Below are positions 3,671 through 58,768 of a DNA stretch of 64,000 bases, piece by piece. Where the stretch lies: contig JBBTWP010000004.1 in the NCBI GenBank assembly GCA_038062675.1, positions 6,751 through 70,750 of the forward strand. Reading direction: 5' to 3'. Each line of letters begins with the position of its first letter. Positions within the stretch are counted from its first letter, which is position 1. Made by a program: the position numbers and the translations under genes. This DNA is from Patescibacteria group bacterium (GTDB taxonomy: Bacteria > Patescibacteriota > Minisyncoccia > Phycocordibacterales > UBA1550). The notes beneath the pieces were generated by a model. It was not told the origin of the DNA. It saw only the letters and a program-made list of their open reading frames with translations, and did not search any database.

Positions 3671-3695
3671 TCAGAATAATCTTTTTGAGATTTAA

Positions 3696-3729
3696 AAAAC
3701 AGCCGACACAAAATGTGCCGGCTGTTTTA
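3696..3729 (+). terminator. Intrinsic terminator after rpsP
   Basis: AAAACAGCCGaCAC ... GTGcCGGCTGTTTT hairpin followed by T-run. Confidence 0.6.
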
Positions 3730-3758
3730 ATGCAAGGCAGAAATTGCACTTTTCGATT

Positions 3759-3836
3759 CTGCGGAATCGTGTCGCGCAAGTCCGTTGGGCGCGACCGGCC
3801 TGCGGAATCGTGTCGCGCAAGTCCGTTGGGCGCGAC
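3759..3836 (-). repeat. Two tandem copies (41-nt period) of a 37-nt double-hairpin unit 'U', minus orientation
   Basis: CTGCGGAATCGTGTCGCGCAAGTCCGTTGGGCGCGAC occurs at 3759-3795 and again, identical, at 3800-3836. The reverse complement is GTCGCGCCCAACGGACTTGCGCGACACGATTCCGCAG. The flank at 3837-3853 reads (reverse complement) AAGGTACGGATTTTTT, the same 5' junction as in elements E1-E3. Confidence 0.85.
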
Positions 3837-3877
3837 TAAAAAATCCGTACCTTTGAAACGACACCTCAACCGAAGAA

Positions 3878-4288: not shown

Positions 4289-4366
4289 TGCCCCCCCAAA
4301 GGACTTACGCGACGCGATTCCGCAGGTTCGTCGCGCCCAAAGGACTTACGCGACGCGATTCCGCAG
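4289..4366 (+). repeat. Two tandem copies (41-nt period) of unit U, plus orientation; the first copy is degenerate at its 5' end
   Basis: GTCGCGCCCAAAGGACTTACGCGACGCGATTCCGCAG at 4330-4366. The copy at 4289-4325 is identical except for its first 6 nt. Differs at 3 of 37 positions from the inverted copies at 3759-3836. Confidence 0.85.
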
Positions 4367-4375
4367 AATCGAAAG

Positions 4376-4405
4376 CCCCGACATCTTTGATGTCGAGGCT
4401 TTTTC
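4376..4405 (+). terminator. Hairpin + T-run after the KH gene / U array
   Basis: CCCCGACATC tttg GATGTCGAGG followed by CTTTTTCG. Confidence 0.5.
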
Positions 4406-5394: not shown

Positions 5395-8300
5395 ATGAGA
5401 GAGAAGAAATATTTTGCGCGATACAAGAAACCCCTCGTACCTTTGCCGAACCTCGTAGAGACACACCTCAAGTCATACCAATGGCTTATTGAGGAAGGTC
5501 TCAAAGATGCATTTAAAGAATTTTCTCCTATTAGAGATTACTCGGAAAAGAAGTTTGAATTTGAATTTTTGGGGATCGAGCTCTCGAAACCAAAATATGA
5601 TGAGTACTATGCGAAAGAAAATAAACTTTCCTACGAAGCACCTCTCAAGGCGCGCGTAAAGCTCATCAACAAAACATTTAAGAGCGAAAAAGAGCAAGAG
5701 ATCTTCATGGCGGATTTTCCTATGATGACTTCTCACGGAACGTTCATTGTGAACGGTGTTGAACGCGTGGTGGTCCCTCAGATCTCGCGTTCTTCTGGTG
5801 TGTCTTTTACGGTTGATGAAATAAAAGGCAAGAGATATTTTGGCGCAAAAATCATCCCAAGTCGCGGTGCGTGGATTGAAGTTGAGTCTGATCCTGATGG
5901 AGCAGTGTATGTGCGCATTGATAAGAAACGCAAATTCCCTGCGTCCGTGCTTTTGCGTGCTCTTGGTTTTCGTGACAATGATGCGATTTTGAAAGAATTT
6001 GCATCTGATGAGGCTGGAAAAAAAGCTATCGAAGGCACAATCGCCAAAGACACTCTCTTGACGGCAAATGAATCATATGTAGAAATTCACAAAAAACTCC
6101 GCGATGGTGATCTTGCTACGCCGGAGAACGCAAAAGAGTTTGTTGACTCTATTTTTGCAAAAGAAAAATATGATCTTTCTGAGGTTGGGCGTTTTAAATT
6201 CAATAAGCGTTTTGGACAAAGTCTTGAAAAAGGTGAAATCGCTCGTCGTACGGTAAATGCTCACGATGTGGCGCTCATAGTTCAACATATTGCAAAGTTG
6301 AACGCTACCCCAAGTGCGCTTCCTGACGACATTGACCACCTCGGTTCGCGTCGTATTCGTTCAGTAGGAGAAATGCTTCAGCAAAAGATTCGCGTTGGTA
6401 TGACGCAAATCAAGCGCAATATTCAAGATCGCATGTCGACCATCGATACTGATGCAACAATGCCAATGCAATTCATTAGTCCTCGCCCACTCCAGGCGCG
6501 TCTCAAGGAATTCTTTGCGACGAACCAGCTTTCGCAGTTCATGACGCAGTACAATATTTTGAGCGAGATTGAAAACCTCCGCACCTTTTCTGCGTTGGGG
6601 CCGGGAGGTCTTACCCGCGAGCGTGCAGGTATTGAAGTTCGCGACGTGCACTCGTCTCACTATGGTCGTTTGTGTCCTATCCACACTCCAGAAGGTCCGA
6701 ACATCGGCCTTATTCTCCGTCTCTCATGTTATGCGCGCATCAATGATTTCGGCATGATCGAAACACCATACGCAAAAGTAAAGAACGGGAAGATTACGAA
6801 AGAAATCGTGTACATGGATGCGCTCGAAGAAGAGCAATACAATATTGCGCACGGAGCAGCTCGTGTTGAGAACGATGCATTTGCTGAAGAGAAAGTTGAA
6901 GTTCGCCAGAAGGGTTATCCAAAACTGGTTGCACGAGACGATGTTCACTATGTGGATGTCGCCGCAAATCAGCCATTTTCAATCGCGACTTCAATGGTTC
7001 CTTTCTTGGAACACGACAATGCAAACCGCGCACTCATGGGTTCAAACATGCAGAAGCAAGCCATTCCTTGTGTTCGTCTTGAAGCTCCGCTTGTGGCAAC
7101 CGGCATGGAGGAGTCTGCGGCGCGCGATACTGGTCGCTTGGTGATTGCAGATGCAAACGGTACTATTACACATGCAGATGCTAAGAAGATTGTACTCAAA
7201 GATGAGAAGAACAAGGAGTACACTTACAATTTGGTAAACTTCTCTCGTACGAATGGTTTTACCGCATTCCATCAACGCCCCTCAGTTGTTCCGGGCGATA
7301 AGGTTAAAAAGGGGGACATCCTCGCTGACACATCATCGTCAGATCAGGGACAAATGGCACTTGGACAAAATGCACTTGTCGCGTTCATGACATGGGGTGG
7401 ATCAAACTACGAAGATGCCATTATTCTTTCGGAACGTCTTGTGAAGAACAGTAAGTTTACTTCGATTCACATGGATGAATTTGTTGTGAACGTGCGTGAC
7501 ACAAAGCTTGGGCCTGAAATTACAACTCACGACATTCCAAACGTCGGCGAAGCAAAACTCAAAGACCTCGACGAAGACGGAATCATTCGTGTTGGTGCCG
7601 AAGTGCACCCCGGAGATATTCTTGTGGGTAAAATTACTCCCAAAGGTGAAGCAGAACTCACATCGGAAGAGCGACTCCTCCGTTCGATTTTTGGTGAAAA
7701 AGCACGCGACGTAAAAGACACTTCACTTCGCATGGAACACGGCAAACGTGGTCGTATTGTGGGAGTCAAAGTATTCTCCCGCGAGAAGGGTGACAATCTT
7801 GAAAGTGGTATCATTAAACGTATTCACATCGAAGTTGCACAGGTCCGCAACATTTCCGTTGGAGATAAGCTTGCAGGACGTCACGGAAACAAAGGAGTTA
7901 TCTCCGTTATTCTTCCAGAAGAAGACATGCCTTACATGGCAGACGGTACGCCTATCGATGTTATTTTGACTCCGCTTGGTGTTCCTTCTCGTATGAACCT
8001 CGGACAGATTCTTGAGCTTCACTTGGGTCTTGCGGCACACACGCTTAACTATCAGGCAATCGTGCCTCCATTTATGGGTGCAACGGCTGAGGAGATTAAG
8101 GGCGAGCTCGTGAAGGCAGGATTCCGTGAGGATGGAAAGATGAAACTCTTTGACGGTCGTTCTGGTGAATCATTTGATCAGGATATTGCCGTAGGGTACA
8201 TGTACATTTTGAAATTGAACCACATGGTTGAAGACAAAATTCACATGCGTTCAATCGGGCCATACTCGCTCATCACACAGCAGCCACTCGGTGGTAAGGC

Positions 8301-14031: not shown

Positions 14032-15345
14032 ATGATCAAGAAAAACCCATCAACAAAAAAAATGGCATCATCAAAAAAGCCTGTGGCATCCGCTGGAAAA
14101 AAGAAAGTAATCGAAAAAGAAAAAAAACCTCTCGGTAAAGCGGTTAAAAAGGTTGTGCCAGTAAAAAAGGTTGTGGTAAAAAAGCCGGTGAAAAAAGTTG
14201 TTAAGGCTGCAACCTCAAAGAAACCTGCAGGTAAGGCGGTGAAGAAAGTTGCGTCAAAAACCGGCGGAAAGAAAAGCGGTAACTGGGAAGAAAAAGCGGC
14301 ACGCCTTATTTTAAAGGGTCGCGCGCGCGGATTTATCACCTTTAATGAAATTTTGAAAGAATTTCCACTTATTGAACAGGATATTTTGTTTCTTGATCAG
14401 CTGTATGAAAAACTCGGTGATGCAGGTGTGGATATCCTTGAAAGCGGCGGGCTTTTGGAGATTGAACCCGAGGAAGCGATTTCCCACAAAAAATATATTT
14501 ATAAAAGTGGCGACTCTTCGTACGACTCCATTCAAATGTACTTGAAAGAGATTGGACAGTACCCGCTCCTTTCACCGGTAGATGAGCGCACACTTGCACA
14601 GCGCATTCAGGCGGGAGATATGGAGGCAAAAAATTTACTCGCGCGTGCAAACTTGCGTCTCGTGGTTTCGATTGCAAAGAAATATGTGGGACGCAGTGCG
14701 GATCTTACGCTTCTTGACCTCATTCAAGAAGGGAACCTCGGTCTCTTTAAGGCAGTGGAGAAGTTTGAATGGGAGAAAGGATACAAGTTCTCAACCTACG
14801 CGACATGGTGGATCCGTCAGGCTATTACACGCGCGCTTGCTGATCAGTCACGTACGATTCGTATTCCGGTTCATATGGTGGAAACGATTTCGAAATATAA
14901 GCAGGTGGTGCGCCGTCTCTCGCAAGATCTTGGTCGCGAACCTCTTGCAGAAGAGGTCGCGACAGAAATGGGGCTTGAGGTTGAAAAAATCTATAACATT
15001 AAAAACATTGACCACGACACGGTGTCGCTTGAGAAATCTATTGGAGACGATGACGACAAATCAACGCTTGGTGAATTTATCGCCGATGACAAAATTCTTT
15101 CTCCGGACCAAGAGTCGGCGCGTCGCATTCTTTCTGATCAAGTAAAAGAAATTTTGGACGACCTTTCAGAAAAGGAGCGCAAGATTCTTGAAATGCGCCA
15201 CGGTTTGGTGGGCGGTATTGTACACACACTCGAAGAAGTGGGCAAGGAGTTCGGGGTGACACGTGAGCGCATTCGTCAGATTGAGGCAAAGGCGATTGAA
15301 AAGATTCGCCAACATGAGAAGGTGGGGAAGTTGAAGAATTATTAA
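14032..15345 (+). CDS. rpoD: Primary RNA polymerase sigma factor (sigma70 family) with a Lys-rich N-terminal extension
   Basis: Region 2 (YATWWIRQAITRA), region 3 and region 4.2 (LEEVGKEFGVTRERIRQIEAKA). The first roughly 85 aa are KKxV/AGK-type low complexity. The ATG lies 1 nt after the dnaG stop. Confidence 0.93.
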   Translation: MIKKNPSTKKMASSKKPVASAGKKKVIEKEKKPLGKAVKKVVPVKKVVVKKPVKKVVKAATSKKPAGKAVKKVASKTGGKKSGNWEEKAARLILKGRARGFITFNEILKEFPLIEQDILFLDQLYEKLGDAGVDILESGGLLEIEPEEAISHKKYIYKSGDSSYDSIQMYLKEIGQYPLLSPVDERTLAQRIQAGDMEAKNLLARANLRLVVSIAKKYVGRSADLTLLDLIQEGNLGLFKAVEKFEWEKGYKFSTYATWWIRQAITRALADQSRTIRIPVHMVETISKYKQVVRRLSQDLGREPLAEEVATEMGLEVEKIYNIKNIDHDTVSLEKSIGDDDDKSTLGEFIADDKILSPDQESARRILSDQVKEILDDLSEKERKILEMRHGLVGGIVHTLEEVGKEFGVTRERIRQIEAKAIEKIRQHEKVGKLKNY

Positions 15346-15355
15346 TTCGGCGCTA

Positions 15356-15493
15356 CGTGCGACAAGTCTTTTTCAGGGTACGGATATTCTGGTCGCGCCC
15401 AAAGGACTTGCGCGACACGATTCCGCAGAATCGAAAATCCTGAAGTTCTCGCGCCGTCGCGCTCCCTAGTCCCTGAAAAAGACTTGTCGCACG
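15356..15493 (+). repeat. Structured intergenic element E1 (conserved core, 23-bp perfect outer stem, apical domain = one U unit at 15392-15428)
   Basis: CGTGCGACAAGTCTTTTTCAGGG (15356-15378) pairs perfectly with CCCTGAAAAAGACTTGTCGCACG (15471-15493). The core GGGTACGGAT ... ATCCTGAAGTTCTCGCGCCGTCGCGCTC is shared with E2 and E3. Starts 11 nt after the rpoD stop. Confidence 0.8.
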
Positions 15494-15529
15494 CGCGGAG
15501 TTAATAATGTCTTCATGAAAAAGAAAAAA

Positions 15530-15549
15530 GGCGGACATTCCTGTCCGCC
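15530..15549 (-). terminator. Intrinsic terminator of the 85-aa membrane-protein gene
   Basis: GGCGGACA ttcc TGTCCGCC hairpin. On the minus strand it is followed by CTTTTTTCTTTTTC. Confidence 0.7.
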
Positions 15550-15567
15550 TTTCGAGTTTTAGGCGAT

Positions 15568-15825
15568 TCATTTTTTTGGATCTTCCTCTTCTTCCATATG
15601 GACTTCTGGTTGAAGTAAGCCGATTTTTGCTAAATAACAAAGAGTGCATCCAACCGAATACAGTACAAGGTAAATAAACACCCACAGCCCGACTGTTGAC
15701 ACCAGAATCCCTTGCCGTAGCACGGCACCATTGTTCATCCAGAGTTCATGCATCGTCAGTGTTCCTAGTGTTGCCAGTACAAAAGCAATGACTCCATTTG
15801 GGTATTTCTTAGGTTTCACGATCAT
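15568..15825 (-). CDS. Small membrane protein (85 aa, 2 predicted TM segments, acidic C-terminus)
   Basis: GAGGAGG Shine-Dalgarno 8 nt upstream of the ATG, its own consensus promoter and terminator, two hydrophobic stretches. No recognisable family. Confidence 0.55.
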   Translation of the reverse strand: MIVKPKKYPNGVIAFVLATLGTLTMHELWMNNGAVLRQGILVSTVGLWVFIYLVLYSVGCTLCYLAKIGLLQPEVHMEEEEDPKK

Positions 15826-31015: not shown

Positions 31016-31140
31016 ACGGAACCGCTTACGCAGTGTGCTGTTGTAAGGGTACGGATTTTTTGAAGCTTAAAAAATCCTGAAATTCTTACGCCGTCGCGTT
31101 CGAAACCCCCTTAAAACAGCACACTGCGACGGGTTTCGTA
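31016..31140 (+). repeat. Structured intergenic element E2 (core 31029-31128)
   Basis: Outer stem CGCAGTGTGCTGTTGTAAGGG / CCCTTAAAACAGCACACTGCG (1 mismatch). Core GGGTACGGATTTTTTgaagcttAAAAAATCCTGAAATTCTTACGCCGTCGCGTTC. Begins 10-23 nt after the response-regulator stop. Confidence 0.8.
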
Positions 31141-35333: not shown

Positions 35334-35340
35334 GACGCTC

Positions 35341-35435
35341 GCTAAGTTCTTTTTAGGGTACGACTTTTTTGAAGCTTAAAAAAGTCTGAAGTTCTCGCGC
35401 CGTCGCGCTCAAAACCCCCTAAAAAGCAACTTAGC
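35341..35435 (+). repeat. Structured intergenic element E3
   Basis: Outer stem GCTAAGTTCTTTTTAGGG / CCCTAAAAAGCAACTTAGC (1 bulge). Core GGGTACGACTTTTTTgaagcttAAAAAAGTCTGAAGTTCTCGCGCCGTCGCGCTC. Begins 8 nt after the pilB stop. Confidence 0.8.
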
Positions 35436-35546
35436 TCGCTTTAAGGTTAAATGCCGTGTAGGGCACCAAGAAAAAGAAGAGCTCGCTTTACAGTGTCAAT
35501 CTGATGTATAATAAATGTAGTATTCAAATATTGAATTCGCAAATTT

Positions 35547-38632: not shown

Positions 38633-41600
38633 ATGTTAATGAATATAAAAAGGCAAATGATTTTGAAAAAAATTTTTGGATACGTCAAAAAATTTTCTAA
38701 ATTTAGTGTCGTTTTTTTGTTAATTGTAACTTTTGGGTTTGCGGATGTTGCAACAGTGGTTTTTGATGGGCTTGGTGCGCCAAAGTTGGCGCAGTGGACA
38801 GCAATCAAGAAAGCAGAAGCAGTGGCGCAGGGAGATGGAGAGATTATATACGGCGATAGTAATGCTAGTCTTGTAAGGAGAAGAGATTGGACAGGAACTT
38901 TCAGCGTGGAGTATGACACCCTTGCTGCTGGAACAGTAATTCGCCATGTTGTCATTAAAGCTTCACCGGTTAGGAATGAAATGATTGCCGGTATACAAAC
39001 CACTGCAGGCACGCTTTACATACAACGCTTTAATGGCACAAGTTGGTCCAATGAGTGGAATGTGACGGTTGGTGATGGAAATCTCCCTCGTTTTGACATC
39101 AGCTTCGAGGGCACTTCTGGAGATATGATGGTGGTGTATACAGGCAACACAGCCACTGACGGACAGGAACTGGTGTATAGAATTTGGAATGGCTCTACTT
39201 GGACTGTTGCGGCCAATTTGGGCTCAACGAGAACGACTGGCATTGTTGACGGTATAGCTATGGAGCGTCGCGGAGGCACTGATGAAATTGCGCTTGTGTA
39301 CGGAGACAGAAACTTCGACCTTTCGGCAAATTTTTGGGATGGTGCAACAAATGCATGGAAGGGGGAGCCGTCGGCAGCATTGGAAACAAGCTTGGCAAAA
39401 GTGGGAACCGCGACGACTCTAACTAACTTTTCTTTTGACCTTGAATTTGAATCCACATCCGGCGAGCTTTTGATTGTGTGGGGTGCTGATGCAGTGTTGG
39501 ACGGCAAGTATGTCACTCGTGGTGCTGGGCCGGCAGGCGCGTGGGGTTCTGTTACCACCAATACGGCTTTTCTTGAAGAGCCGACTGATGTGGAGCTTTC
39601 TGCCGACCCAAACTCAAATTACATTGCGTATGCGAATAGCTCGGATAACGGCGCAGACTCCGATGCCATAGTCTGGACGGGCACTGCGTGGGGGACGGCG
39701 TTTCAAGTTGACGCTTCAAACGACACGGTGGGTGCCGGAACAAGTAACAATGCGGTAAACTGGGTGACGAGTGGTGCCCAGACGCGTGCTGTGCTCACCT
39801 ACGACGATGCCAATGCAGCGGGTGTTGACTGGGCAGTATATAACAAAAATACCAATGCATGGGCTCTCCAAACCGACTGTACTACCGCTTGCTCGTCGCA
39901 ACCACTGAGTGGTGACGATAAGGTTCATCGTTTGCGACGCAATCCGTTTAATCAAGCTGAACTTCTTTTTTTGGGAGTAGATAACACTTCCGATTTATGG
40001 GTGAAAAAATTGGTCTTCGACGGAACTAATTTCACATGGTCAAATGCCGATGGCGGAGTAGCTCTTGAAACTGTGATATCGAGCGTTACCGGTTTTGCGG
40101 CAGATTTTGCATACAATAGGTACATTCCTCCTACGGTTACCACCACCCTTGCGACCGGCTCCGACCCTGCCGCCGCTACTATTGCCCCCGAAGCTGTAAC
40201 GACCGATGTAAATCAGTTTACTCTGCAGACAAGCAGTGGAACGGAAACAGTAACGTCGGTTACAGTGAATCTTTCAACCGGCAGCGGGGTGGATTCGCTT
40301 TATATTACTGATAATACCAATACGGTTTTGGGTTCAATAATCGCGCCGCTGTCGGGGGGCTCTAATGTGGTTGCCGTTTCGGGGATGTCAGCAGGTACAT
40401 CCGCCACAACATTCAAGGTTCGTGTTACTCCCCTGCCTCACAGTTTAATGCCAGCAGTGACGGGTGCAGCATACGCCATCACCGCACCCGTCACTGCATG
40501 GGCGGGGAATGCCACGACACACGCGGGGAGTGATACGAATACCAATGCACTTACAATTGACAATGCATCCCCTTCGGGAGCTACAAGCGCAAGTGGTACA
40601 GCAGGTGACGCAAAGGTAACACTCAACTGGACGACATCGGCGTCCACCGATTTTAGTCGCTCGGTGATGCTCCGGTGGACAGCATCAACGCCGAGTGCAG
40701 CGGTGCCCGAAGAGGGGACGGATTATGCGAATGGGAATACTGTTGGTAGTGGTTCAAAAATTGACTACAATACAGGAGCCAGTCCCATAGGTGTCGCCTT
40801 CGACTCCTCCACCAACTCTGTTTGGGTGGTGAATAGTGGTGGCAATACTGTCACCAAGCTCACCGCTGCCACTGGCGCTTTGGTGGGAACATATACAGTG
40901 GGAAATGCTCCTCGAGATGTCGCCTTCGACTCCTCCACCAACTCTGTTTGGGTGACGAATACTGGTGGTGGTTCCGGCAATACTGTCACCAAGCTCACCG
41001 CCGCCACCGGCGCCTTGGTGGGAACATATACAGTGGGAACTGGTCCTTTTGGTGTCGCGTTCGACTCCTCCACCAACTCTGTTTGGGTGGCGAATAATGG
41101 TAGTGGTTCCGGCAATACTGTCACCAAGCTCACCGCCGCCACCGGCGCCTTGGTGGGAACATATACAGTGGGAACTGGTCCTTTTGGTGTCGCGTTCGAC
41201 TCCTCCACCAACTCTGTTTGGGTGGCGAATAATGGTAGTGGTTCCGGCAATACTGTCACCAAGCTCACCGCCGCCACCGGCGCCTTGGTGGGAACATATA
41301 CAGTGGGAACTGGTCCTTTTGGTGTCGCGTTCGACTCCTCCACCAACTCTGTTTGGGTGGCGAATAATGGTAGTGGTTCCGGCAATACTGTCACCAAGCT
41401 CACCGCCGCCACCGGCGCCTTGGTGGGAACATATACGGTGGGAACTGGTCCTCGAGATATCGCCTTCGACTCCTCCACCAACTCTGTTTGGGTGGTAAAT
41501 AATGGTGGAAATACTGTCACTAAGCTCACCGCCGCCACCGGCGCTTTGGTGGGAACATATACGGTGGGAACCGGTCCCATAGATGTCGCCTTCGACTCCA

Positions 41601-43132
41601 CCACCAACTCTGTTTGGGTGGTGAATAATGGTGACGATACCGTCACCAAGCTCACCGCCGCCACCGGCGCTTTGGTGGGAACATATGCAGTGGGGGTCAG
41701 TCCCATTAGTGTTGCTTTCGACTCCTCCACCAACTCTGTTTGGGTGGTGAATAATGTTGGCGAAACCGTCAGCAAAGTGGATGCAGTGGGCGCCACGGTT
41801 GTCTGTGTCCGCACTGATGCTGCATCGACCGCCATTACCGACATCAACGGTGCCGGTGGCACCAGCTGTCTCACTACCGCCCTTACGAACGGCACCGCCT
41901 ACAGTTACAAAGTTTTCCAAAAAGACGCAAATGGCAACTATGACGCCGGTGTCGTGCCGACGGGTTCGCCGTTTACACCAGCTGCCATCACAACCACGCT
42001 TGCCACTGGTTCCGACCCTGCCGCGGCAACAATCGCCCCCGGAGCCGTCGCAACTGATGTTGATTTATTTACTTTGCAAACAAGCAGTGGAACGGAAACA
42101 GTAACTTCGGTGACGGTGAACCTTTCGACAAATAGTGGTATCGGTTTGCTCGCCATTACCGACAATGCAAACACTGTTTTGGGGTCGACTGCATCGCCGG
42201 TTACGGGTTCTAACGTTATTACGGTCTCAGGTATGTCAGCAGGTACCACGCTCACCACGTTTAAAGTCCGCGCCACACCTCTCAGTCATGCGCTGATGCC
42301 CGCACCTGCAGGCGGTGCGTACGCCATCACTGCGCCAGTGACAAGCTGGGCGGGAGCAAATACGCACGCAGGGAGTGATACAAACTCCAATGCGCTAACG
42401 ATTGACAACGGGTCGCCTGCTGGCACAACAGGCGCTGGCGCGGTAGCTGGGAACGCACAGGTCACGGTGAGCTGGACGAATCCTGCTGATGCTGATTTTC
42501 AAAAGGTAATTATTTATTGTAAGACCGCAAGCATCACTGAAACGCCAACAGAAGGATCTGATCCAACGGTGGACGTCGCCGCCTGCGACGCAACAGCACG
42601 TGTCAAGTATAATGGTTCAATAAGCCCGCAGATTATCACCGGCCTCACTAACGGTACGTTGTATTATTTTAGAATTTATGCGCGTGACACCAACGGTAAC
42701 TTTACCGCTATTGCATCTACACAGCAGGTTTCTGCTACGCCCGCGGCTGGAGGCGGACTCCCCGTTTCAGGGACACTCACCTCTGGGGTTTTTGACACAG
42801 GAACTGCTGATGGGGCGACGTTTAATTCTATTTTATGGAATGGAACCACTATCGGGACAGGAGCAGTACGCTTCCAGTTTTCGGCATCGAATAGTAGTAC
42901 AGGTCCATGGGACTATAACGGAGCAGGTTCAGGGACATGCGGGGCATTGGACTGGTTTAACCCCGGAGCTCTTGATACCGCTGTGGAGCTAAAGGGTTCT
43001 GGATGCGCAGCGCTTTGGAACAACAAACGATACTATCGTTACAAGGTACAGATTTGTTCCGCCGCAAATTGTACTGATGTTGGTGCTACTAGTCCTATTA
43101 TAAATAAAATTGTTGTCAGTTGGTCACCGTAA
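38633..43132 (+). CDS. Giant (1499 aa) membrane-anchored/secreted surface protein: N-terminal Trp-repeat propeller-like region, module A1, 8 YVTN-type beta-propeller repeats, module A2, C-terminal Ig/Fn3-like region. Candidate pilus-associated adhesin.
   Basis: N-terminal hydrophobic anchor (FSVVFLLIVTFGF). Seven W-containing repeats spaced 50-65 aa apart. Eight repeats of NTVTKLTAATGALVGTYTVGtGPxgVAFDSSTNSVWVaNnG match the 40-residue YVTN propeller repeat pattern. Encoded inside the minor-pilin operon. The exact start (38633 vs 38657) is uncertain. Confidence 0.85.
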   Translation: MLMNIKRQMILKKIFGYVKKFSKFSVVFLLIVTFGFADVATVVFDGLGAPKLAQWTAIKKAEAVAQGDGEIIYGDSNASLVRRRDWTGTFSVEYDTLAAGTVIRHVVIKASPVRNEMIAGIQTTAGTLYIQRFNGTSWSNEWNVTVGDGNLPRFDISFEGTSGDMMVVYTGNTATDGQELVYRIWNGSTWTVAANLGSTRTTGIVDGIAMERRGGTDEIALVYGDRNFDLSANFWDGATNAWKGEPSAALETSLAKVGTATTLTNFSFDLEFESTSGELLIVWGADAVLDGKYVTRGAGPAGAWGSVTTNTAFLEEPTDVELSADPNSNYIAYANSSDNGADSDAIVWTGTAWGTAFQVDASNDTVGAGTSNNAVNWVTSGAQTRAVLTYDDANAAGVDWAVYNKNTNAWALQTDCTTACSSQPLSGDDKVHRLRRNPFNQAELLFLGVDNTSDLWVKKLVFDGTNFTWSNADGGVALETVISSVTGFAADFAYNRYIPPTVTTTLATGSDPAAATIAPEAVTTDVNQFTLQTSSGTETVTSVTVNLSTGSGVDSLYITDNTNTVLGSIIAPLSGGSNVVAVSGMSAGTSATTFKVRVTPLPHSLMPAVTGAAYAITAPVTAWAGNATTHAGSDTNTNALTIDNASPSGATSASGTAGDAKVTLNWTTSASTDFSRSVMLRWTASTPSAAVPEEGTDYANGNTVGSGSKIDYNTGASPIGVAFDSSTNSVWVVNSGGNTVTKLTAATGALVGTYTVGNAPRDVAFDSSTNSVWVTNTGGGSGNTVTKLTAATGALVGTYTVGTGPFGVAFDSSTNSVWVANNGSGSGNTVTKLTAATGALVGTYTVGTGPFGVAFDSSTNSVWVANNGSGSGNTVTKLTAATGALVGTYTVGTGPFGVAFDSSTNSVWVANNGSGSGNTVTKLTAATGALVGTYTVGTGPRDIAFDSSTNSVWVVNNGGNTVTKLTAATGALVGTYTVGTGPIDVAFDSTTNSVWVVNNGDDTVTKLTAATGALVGTYAVGVSPISVAFDSSTNSVWVVNNVGETVSKVDAVGATVVCVRTDAASTAITDINGAGGTSCLTTALTNGTAYSYKVFQKDANGNYDAGVVPTGSPFTPAAITTTLATGSDPAAATIAPGAVATDVDLFTLQTSSGTETVTSVTVNLSTNSGIGLLAITDNANTVLGSTASPVTGSNVITVSGMSAGTTLTTFKVRATPLSHALMPAPAGGAYAITAPVTSWAGANTHAGSDTNSNALTIDNGSPAGTTGAGAVAGNAQVTVSWTNPADADFQKVIIYCKTASITETPTEGSDPTVDVAACDATARVKYNGSISPQIITGLTNGTLYYFRIYARDTNGNFTAIASTQQVSATPAAGGGLPVSGTLTSGVFDTGTADGATFNSILWNGTTIGTGAVRFQFSASNSSTGPWDYNGAGSGTCGALDWFNPGALDTAVELKGSGCAALWNNKRYYRYKVQICSAANCTDVGATSPIINKIVVSWSP
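40775..41785 (+). repeat. Tandem coding repeats (126-135 bp) encoding the YVTN blades; 40970-41420 is a perfect 135-bp x 3.3 array
   Basis: GGTTCCGGCAATACTGTCACC... recurs at 40970, 41105, 41240 and 41375 (exact 135-bp spacing). I saw no substitutions until about 41421. Confidence 0.9.
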
Positions 43133-58472: not shown

Positions 58473-58709
58473 ATGAAAAATAGTATGCGCGGGTTTGGTT
58501 ATATCGGGCTCTTGGTCACACTCGCTCTTGTGGCTGTAATGATGAGCGTTGGCTACTCGTCGCTTCTTTCAAGTAAGAACACTACGGCAGGAGATGCGAC
58601 GACGCAGGAGAGAGGAATAGGCGCAATCCATGAAGCGAATGAAGCCAAGCGATTGCTCGAAGAACAAAGTTCGGCGCAACTCAAAATACAACAACAATTA
58701 CTTAAATAG
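58473..58709 (+). CDS. Small membrane-anchored protein (78 aa) with coiled-coil-like tail
   Basis: MKNSMRGFGYIGLLVTLALVAVMM hydrophobic N-terminus followed by a polar Glu/Gln-rich tail. Confidence 0.4.
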   Translation: MKNSMRGFGYIGLLVTLALVAVMMSVGYSSLLSSKNTTAGDATTQERGIGAIHEANEAKRLLEEQSSAQLKIQQQLLK

Positions 58710-58768
58710 TTTGAATTACGAATCAACGAGTCTCATAATTCTGGCAATAATTTTGATAAGATTTATTT

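Follow-up and report, generated by a model that had tools for sequence, protein, structure and literature searches.

The 64,000-nt stretch analysed here (the window), positions 6,751 to 70,750 of the forward strand of contig JBBTWP010000004.1 from a Patescibacteria group bacterium (assembly GCA_038062675.1), contains three copies of a structured palindromic element, E, each lying just beyond the end of a plus-strand gene. These genes are rpoD, a response regulator gene and pilB, with stop codons at 15345, 31006 and 35333, respectively, and the copies (E1, E2 and E3) start 7–10 nt from them. An earlier note on this DNA had described the copies as a conserved core between outer arms that vary in sequence and are always paired. 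Direct reading confirmed the three positions and the quoted strings, including the arm pairs CGTGCGACAAGT/ACTTGTCGCACG, CGCAGTGTGCTG/CAGCACACTGCG and GCTAAGTT/AACTTAGC. A degenerate 14-base core string, TTCTNNCGCCGTCGCG, occurs three times in the window, always on the plus strand, against a chance expectation of 0.39, and a 25-nt core string is identical in E1 and E3, with zero such matches expected by chance. When a covariance model of the element was run over the whole window with its filters off, only E1 (63.9 bits), E2 (100.9 bits) and E3 (95.9 bits) were matched. E1–E3 are members of a previously undescribed multi-copy repeat family, which is present neither in Rfam nor in the literature we searched.

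The core of the element comprises 62 nt and folds as a three-way junction on the tip of a long hairpin that follows gene ends. Its first helix, P1, is the variable arm pair, 15–40 bp long and free in sequence yet complementary. In A+T-rich hosts the inner part of P1 consists of a T5/A5 tract followed by GG(G)/CC(C), in many cases with a small internal loop rich in pyrimidines (YYC / UY) between the two. The joining strands are UAC (J1/2), CUGAAR (J2/3) and AAACC (J3/1), P2 has the form GGAUUUUUU-GAAGCUU-AAAAAAUCC, and P3 the form (UU)C-[UC]-GCGC-CGUC-GCGC-[UC]-G(AA). Junction and loop positions are conserved at 93–100%, the P3 loop being CGNC. The P2 loop and J2/3 can accommodate additional hairpins, as seen in E1 and in three copies at locus L013 (L and a number denote loci from other sequences). 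A second core type has CAC at J1/2 and a J3/1 strand resembling CCAAGU.

E2 (31016–31140, plus strand; −59.2 kcal/mol, z −8.3) contains an outer inverted repeat, TTACGGAACC/GGGTTTCGTAA, of a subfamily that we term F-type, the variable arms CGCAGTGTGCTG/CAGCACACTGCG and a core at 31047–31110, in which the foot pair of P3 has changed on both sides from G-C to A-U. Its outermost arms are common to L016, L069, L074 and L061. The arms and core of E3 lie at 35341–35435 (plus strand), and its flanks, GCTCGCTAAGTT ... AACTTAGCTCGCTTTAAGGTTAAAT, extend the unit to about 35452; in the core (35356–35419), P2 is GACUUUUUU/AAAAAAGUC and the closing pair of P3 is C·A. The heptamer GCTCGCT is found three times around E3, on the two sides of the palindrome (35337–35343 and 35434–35440) and 47 nt downstream (35481–35487). 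The whole E1 palindrome spans 15331–15515 (plus strand; z −9.0), with arms at about 15331–15375 and 15474–15515 that form a 40-pair duplex of −57 kcal/mol, the left arm taking in the last rpoD codons and the stop codon. The E1 core (15376–15473) reads GGG-UAC-P2-CUGAAGUUCU-P3-CUCCCUAGU-CCC; its 3′ junction, CUCCCUAGU, departs from the canonical GAAACC and resembles that of the second core type. The apical hairpin of E1 is oversized because a unit of a different repeat, R37, sits in the loop of P2 (15392–15428, plus strand, no mismatches to the R37 consensus) and interrupts the core. Gene callers place a minus-strand open reading frame (ORF) of 72–110 amino acids on the E1 palindrome (a 72-residue ORF over E1; 15353–15685 in the window; L077:4322-4540), which is very likely spurious.

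Both strands of E1–E3 fold far better than shuffled sequences (z −5 to −9) into an outer stem with two inner hairpins; compared with dinucleotide shuffles, the plus strand scores z −6 to −9. The three palindromes are followed by CGCGGAG, TAATCTGG and TCGCTTTAAGG, respectively. As the earlier note had observed, none of them leads into a T-run, whereas classical T-run hairpins occur elsewhere in the window (for example, at 15505–15550, 3690–3730 and 4370–4405), and a separate classical terminator follows E1. By reading only, no convincing −35/−10 pair of a sigma-70 promoter was seen inside the element on either strand.

One scan of species-representative genomes with the query CTGAANTTCTNNCGCCGTCGCG returned 76 loci, 10 of which are chance matches in unrelated phyla. 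The remaining 66 loci are genuine copies, distributed over 33 species assemblies that all belong to the Patescibacteria, mostly to the Paceibacteria. The carriers include Nomurabacteria, Paceibacterota, Adlerbacteria, Yonathbacteria, Yanofskybacteria and two metagenome-assembled genomes labelled Saccharibacteria, and the element is found across groundwater "candidate phyla radiation" bacteria. The window itself belongs to an assembly from Hainich groundwater, of a Yonathbacteria-like organism. Several single 8-kb loci contain 3–4 copies. A covariance model of 108 positions, built from 68 copies, recognised at least 84 copies in the collected sequence, including about 19 divergent ones that the seed pattern had missed. 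Pairwise identity averages 0.895 across the 62 core columns and 0.447 across the distal arms. The conserved-core, variable-arm family proposed earlier is genuine. Searches of Rfam 15 gave no match in the whole window at the gathering score and, for both strands of E1 and E3 at E values up to 10, only spurious matches to long-hairpin miRNAs; the earlier view that the element belongs to no named non-coding RNA or ribozyme class therefore stands. Literature searches, in which the core sequence was also used as a string, found no description of it. ARAGORN detected no tRNA inside the elements, nor did they lie near tRNA genes, and a tRNA-like origin or association was dropped on this result. In one and the same intergenic spacer, L076 (1519-1635) has a tRNA gene and L013 (979-1106) an E element.

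The pairing of the stems is maintained despite sequence change, and covariation is strong in P1, P2 and P3. In an alignment that was fitted by the model and hence leans towards the structure, 92.9% of cells are paired, compared to 77.3% after column shuffling and 41–62% when the partners were slid, and changes on both sides were found in 29 of 33 pairs, including all four of the upper P3 stem and seven of nine in P2. The double change that the earlier note saw where the apical hairpin begins, GGAT..ATCC versus GACT..AGTC, is correct by direct reading. P3 occurs as GCGC/GCGC, GGCU/AGCC, GACU/AGUC, GGC[UC]GC/GC[UC]GCC and UGC[UC]GC/GC[UC]GCA, with the CGNC loop and both junctions constant. These variants are found beside canonical copies in the same 8-kb loci and genomes, which argues that base pairing is what is preserved, rather than a protein reading duplex half-sites. 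Together with the pairing excess and the double changes, they bear out the earlier proposal of selection on a folded single strand. A comparison over time is provided by E1 and its core orthologue (L080:11414-11556), which share the R37 insertion and can be dated by it. Every stem has been kept in both, and their arms are unrelated in sequence yet fully paired, while the junction sequences have drifted, further in L080 than in E1. Thus, the pairing of the arms is preserved in place for long periods, whereas constraint on the junction sequence is limited to intact elements. Between the window and L080 (11445-11490), R37 itself retains about 87% identity while the E core around it decays.

Close relatives differ in the presence of the element, which also flips in place and shows concerted evolution within a genome. 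At the pilB site, L084, whose PilB is 96% identical to that of the window, has the stop codon, 29 nt and the shared pilC promoter, and E3 is cleanly absent. The pilB-pilC spacers of L085 and L086 also lack E3, and no element is present in 68 kb of syntenic DNA of L085–L087, where the window has E2 and E3. The same spacer in L087 holds a gene of the bAvd / 23S_rRNA_IVP family (L087:11735-12106). At the rpoD site, L081 and L082 have no copy and nothing but a classical terminator is present in Yonathbacteria DMXK01; L079 (RpoD 95% identical) bears a fresh canonical copy with different arms, and in L080 (81%) the copy is interrupted by R37 just as it is in the window. L053 contains the E3 unit, identical arms and flanks included, at a non-orthologous position between a 20-codon ORF and the RNase P RNA gene that follows; the GCTCGCT repeat around E3 and its L053 counterpart belongs to the copied unit, and the first two heptamers seen at E3 also surround the L053 copy. 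Within A+T-rich genomes, non-orthologous copies have arm subfamilies such as AWCAAGAAYAATAT in common, and in JBAYLA a private core variant, GGTACAGA, is fixed in all copies. Between conserved flanks, the core lies in opposite orientations at the orthologous sites L028/L046 (flanks 89% identical), L011/L021, L049/L075 and L076/L052. The F-type subfamily, to which E2 belongs, has a conserved outer inverted repeat of about 18 nt, CTTTGAATTACGAAACTC, whereas the arms of the remaining copies are unrelated, and this outer repeat also encloses other centres or almost nothing.

These observations partly support the mobile palindromic element that the earlier note had considered: a close relative (PilB 96% identical) has an empty site, one unit recurs at a non-orthologous site, and orientation flips and nested loop insertions were both found. 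The associated idea that insertion targets the loops of existing hairpins did not hold as a strict rule. It is plausible for E2, since plain hairpins occupy this site in relatives, but is contradicted by units that travel with their arms and by the rpoD site, where the empty relative has no pre-existing hairpin. The terminal inverted repeat suggested for the element, CTTTTTAGGG, is not conserved outside A+T-rich hosts.

The element is linked to the 3′ ends of genes and has a sense bias, but not exclusively so. The upstream gene is on the same strand in 56 of 69 copies and on the opposite strand in 13. According to crude ORF calls for 57 classified copies, 23 are co-directional sense, 23 convergent, 7 co-directional antisense and 4 divergent. 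Antisense copies have fully canonical cores (100–122 bits). In A+T-rich hosts, the arms lie between an A-run and a T-run as in a bidirectional terminator, an arrangement not seen in the window or in other G+C-richer hosts. The genes between neighbouring copies are housekeeping genes (YidC, Map, MnmA, Xth, ComM and similar), and the possibility of a common gene flanked by pairs of the element was dropped because they are ordinary. An account of the orientation bias by replication strand was also set aside: local GC skew agrees with orientation in 54 copies versus 29, which is inseparable from gene orientation.

The two strands of the element differ in the quality of their pairing. On the mRNA-sense (plus) strand, paired positions contain 92 A·C/C·A and 28 G·U/U·G mismatches (33 versus 13 in the distal arms alone), and the A·C excess is seen whatever the gene context, in P2, P3 and the arms alike. 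Ordinary T-run hairpins after ORFs of the same sequences served as a control and show the reverse on the mRNA strand, 14 G·U versus 8 A·C (Fisher p = 0.008 in comparison with the distal arms of the element and 0.0005 with all its helices). Recurrent core polymorphisms are G-to-A changes on the plus strand (G29A, G100A, G114A), the conserved UC/UC internal loop of P3 corresponds to tandem G·A on the complement, and the complement forms the more stable fold in 76 of 83 copies, by 4.85 kcal/mol on average. Since known mutational skews would favour G·U on the coding or leading strand, the A·C asymmetry suggests that pairing is selected on the complement, so that the strand opposite to the mRNA strand would be the one that folds. 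The flanking genes are not expected to transcribe this strand at E2 and E3, which points to a fold at the level of DNA.

Two partial relatives of the element were found in the window. An orphan left half of the core, AAAGGTACGGATTTTTTA, lies at 3837–3858 on the minus strand, abutting or fused to an R37 tandem pair, its right half missing. Directly after a stop codon at 58709–58748 (plus strand) is a coreless F-type hairpin, TTTGAATTACGAATCAACGAGTCTCATAATTCTGGCA, with the outer inverted repeat and the right flank TAAT(T)CTGGCA as in E2; it is probably an internally deleted relative. R37 units have the sequence GTCGCGCCCAAAGGACTTGCGCGACACGATTCCGCAG(AATCG) and contain two hairpins each. They lie behind genes in tandem pairs whose period is 41 nt (3759–3836, minus strand; 4289–4366, plus strand), in addition to the single unit nested in E1. 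A further tandem array at 40706–41796 is made of 135-nt (45-codon) repeats and some 126-nt units, 64–96% identical, and presumably encodes a repetitive domain of a large surface protein.

The one candidate for a mobilising enzyme was a gene of the Y1_Tnp (PF01797) RAYT/IS200-like family that adjoins pilB immediately upstream in L084 (L084:1-900) and has a homologue at L030:5480-6400; the corresponding position of the window is occupied by an unrelated ORF of 231 amino acids. Genes of this family encode about 210–230 amino acids and have more than 520 relatives in metagenome contigs, many of them sampled at the same groundwater sites (L088-L167 among our loci). Short perfect palindromes, CACTTGGACATCCGATGTCCAAGTG and variants, lie on either side of every gene examined, and the genes with their palindromes are a REPtron-like or IS200-like system in their own right. 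This palindrome is absent from the window. IS200/RAYT was therefore rejected as the mobilising enzyme, the Y1_Tnp family having its own palindromes and no association with the element. A tblastn search with IS608 TnpA and E. coli RAYT queries gave no match, and no autonomous partner with the same ends and a transposase was seen in the approximately 1.1 Mb examined.

Our preferred explanation, which we hold with about even confidence, is that E is a structure-dependent mobile palindromic repeat, similar to REPs or miniature inverted-repeat transposable elements (MITEs), whose three-way-junction core would function as a single strand and which is tolerated or exapted as a 3′-end hairpin. The unit would spread at the DNA level, arms included, and a trans-acting factor would recognise the junction as its module. 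What folds would most likely be single-stranded DNA, apparently of the strand complementary to the mRNA. Copies may survive only at gene 3′ ends because compact genomes would offer no other neutral space, and in A+T-rich hosts, arms with an A-run and a T-run could double as bidirectional terminator hairpins. The complementarity of the arms could be kept by selection for the hairpin, by templated correction within the palindrome, or by both. A number of observations weigh against this explanation. Flanking direct repeats are no commoner than in shuffled flank pairs, so that no target-site duplication is seen, and no transposase or recombinase linked to the element was found. In 80 RAYT-like loci (332 kb), only four E copies are present, none of them adjacent, and the RAYT-like genes are bordered by CTTGGACnnnnGTCCAAG-type palindromes instead of E. 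The only match in viral contigs is due to chance, so viral carriage was dropped. The mismatches behind the wobble asymmetry are partly inherited together and hence are not independent, and the complement strand is G-rich, from which alone a better fold is expected. Class-wide conservation of the unpaired junction, compensated stems and the scarcity of dead copies would also be expected of a functional RNA selected by the host, and the 56:13 sense bias relative to the upstream gene fits a transcribed role. A bolder and rather doubtful reading treats the core as a new functional class of three-way junction, nearly invariant across the class and spreading without a recognisable transposase. It could be a recombination or priming site in single-stranded DNA of the complement, following an attC-like logic, or a new ribozyme or protein-recruiting RNA.

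In a cis-acting 3′-end mRNA module, which is the main rival and a serious one, though in our estimate less likely than the mobile repeat, the element would be a transcribed tail with arms that terminate transcription or block exonucleases and a junction that binds a protein or nucleates the folding of the A+U-rich stem, mobility being secondary. The sense bias, the rarity of copies between divergent genes (4 of 57), the A-run/T-run brackets of A+T-rich genomes and the plain long hairpins that orthologous spacers of relatives hold at the same place agree with such a module. So do the invariant junctions, A-rich at their unpaired conserved positions on the plus strand, next to covarying P2 and P3 and loops of varying length, and the loss of junction sequence in the disrupted E1 and L080 copies. 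However, the seven co-directional and several other antisense copies retain canonical cores, the core flips at orthologous sites, close relatives lack the element at the same genes, and a T-run is missing from the window copies and in G+C-richer genomes, E1 being trailed by a classical terminator of its own. As the wobble asymmetry is, in addition, the reverse of that in ordinary terminators (A·C to G·U 92:28, compared with 8:14), and 13 of 69 copies are antisense with intact cores, the plus-strand 3′-UTR (untranslated region) module considered in the earlier note is weakened. The same antisense copies and strand asymmetry speak against a small RNA with an activity of its own in many 3′ UTRs, either a new self-cleaving ribozyme or a trans-acting RNA freed from the stalk by, for example, RNase III. 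Although the core, a compact meeting point of three helices at which about 15 junction nucleotides are invariant and the stems covary freely, has the general look of small ribozymes and a loose likeness to the hammerhead core (GGUA..CUGAAG..GAAAC), and although sequence-independent arm pairing would suit a processing stalk, the defining hammerhead positions differ, no Rfam ribozyme is matched at E values up to 10, and dozens of copies per genome of about 1 Mb would be unprecedented for a trans-acting RNA. We consider this improbable. Less probable still is a protein site in duplex or cruciform DNA (a nucleoid, replication or uptake signal) with the P2 and P3 inverted repeats as half-sites of a dimer. 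It would account for the tolerance of either orientation, the many copies and the conservation of sequence on both strands, but the differing complementary P2 and P3 stems within one genome are predicted by base pairing and not by a fixed specificity, the wobble asymmetry implies that one strand matters, and a non-palindromic centre of 62 nt would disfavour cruciform extrusion.

The genomes of Patescibacteria are tiny and streamlined, and very few mobile elements or regulatory RNAs are known from them; E occupies the 3′ ends of their housekeeping genes with about 90% conservation across the class. If selfish, it would be a major unrecognised element whose propagation is possibly independent of protein or based on single-stranded DNA; if an RNA, it would be a widespread 3′-end device. 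In either case, it provides a marker that is easily searched with the covariance model. Gene callers put spurious ORFs on it.

Among known systems, the REP/BIME/REPIN repeats, which are associated with RAYT (Y1 HUH) enzymes, resemble E in being extragenic multi-copy hairpin repeats at gene 3′ ends that occur in either orientation and evolve in concert. REPs may also stabilise mRNA or terminate transcription, are thought to act as folded single-stranded DNA, and RAYT-like genes exist in these lineages. They differ in that REPs are palindromes of 20–40 nt with conserved arms, whereas E has variable arms around a conserved junction core, and no cognate RAYT gene flanked by E was found. ERIC/IRU, Neisseria Correia, RUP and BOX elements have conserved terminal inverted repeats and are restricted to genera, the Correia elements having TA duplications. 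Like E, they are imperfect palindromes of 100–150 nt in intergenic regions or 3′ UTRs, are polymorphic in presence and absence, form long hairpins and have been proposed to act at the RNA level; unlike them, E has no target duplication, variable ends outside the F-type subfamily and a core conserved across a class. Of the features of a MITE, insertion polymorphism and the same unit at different sites were found and target-site duplication was not; conserved ends are seen as the F-type outer repeat, other copies having unrelated arms.

The attC sites of integrons have conserved R and L boxes at their ends, a variable centre and a functional folded bottom strand, and they lie in cassette arrays and need IntI. 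E is similar in its position directly after stop codons, in conserving structure rather than arm sequence, in the apparent use of one folded DNA strand and in its biased orientation, but its copies are dispersed among housekeeping genes and its arms, by reading, contain no R″/L″ or L′/R′ boxes (RYYYAAC...GTTRRRY). With the hammerhead ribozyme, E has in common a junction of three helices, short conserved strands and the partial motifs CUGA, GAAAC and GUA. The assignment was rejected because the equivalent of G8 is G in 46 and A in 37 copies, A9 is U, G12 is A or paired, the base of stem II is the UC/UC loop, and no Rfam hammerhead model matches; the mismatch at catalytic positions also led to the rejection of other known ribozymes. 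As in an intrinsic (Rho-independent) terminator, a long hairpin follows the stop codon, with A-run and T-run flanks in many A+T-rich hosts, but the loop of E is a structured insert of 62 nt, its wobble bias is opposite, and window copies and those of G+C-richer hosts have no T-run right after the hairpin. Thus, the element works like the REP, ERIC and Correia types of repeat yet does not fit the definition of a REP, a classical MITE, an attC site, a hammerhead or a plain terminator, and its architecture, a conserved centre between variable arms, is inverted with respect to that of REP, ERIC, Correia and MITE elements.

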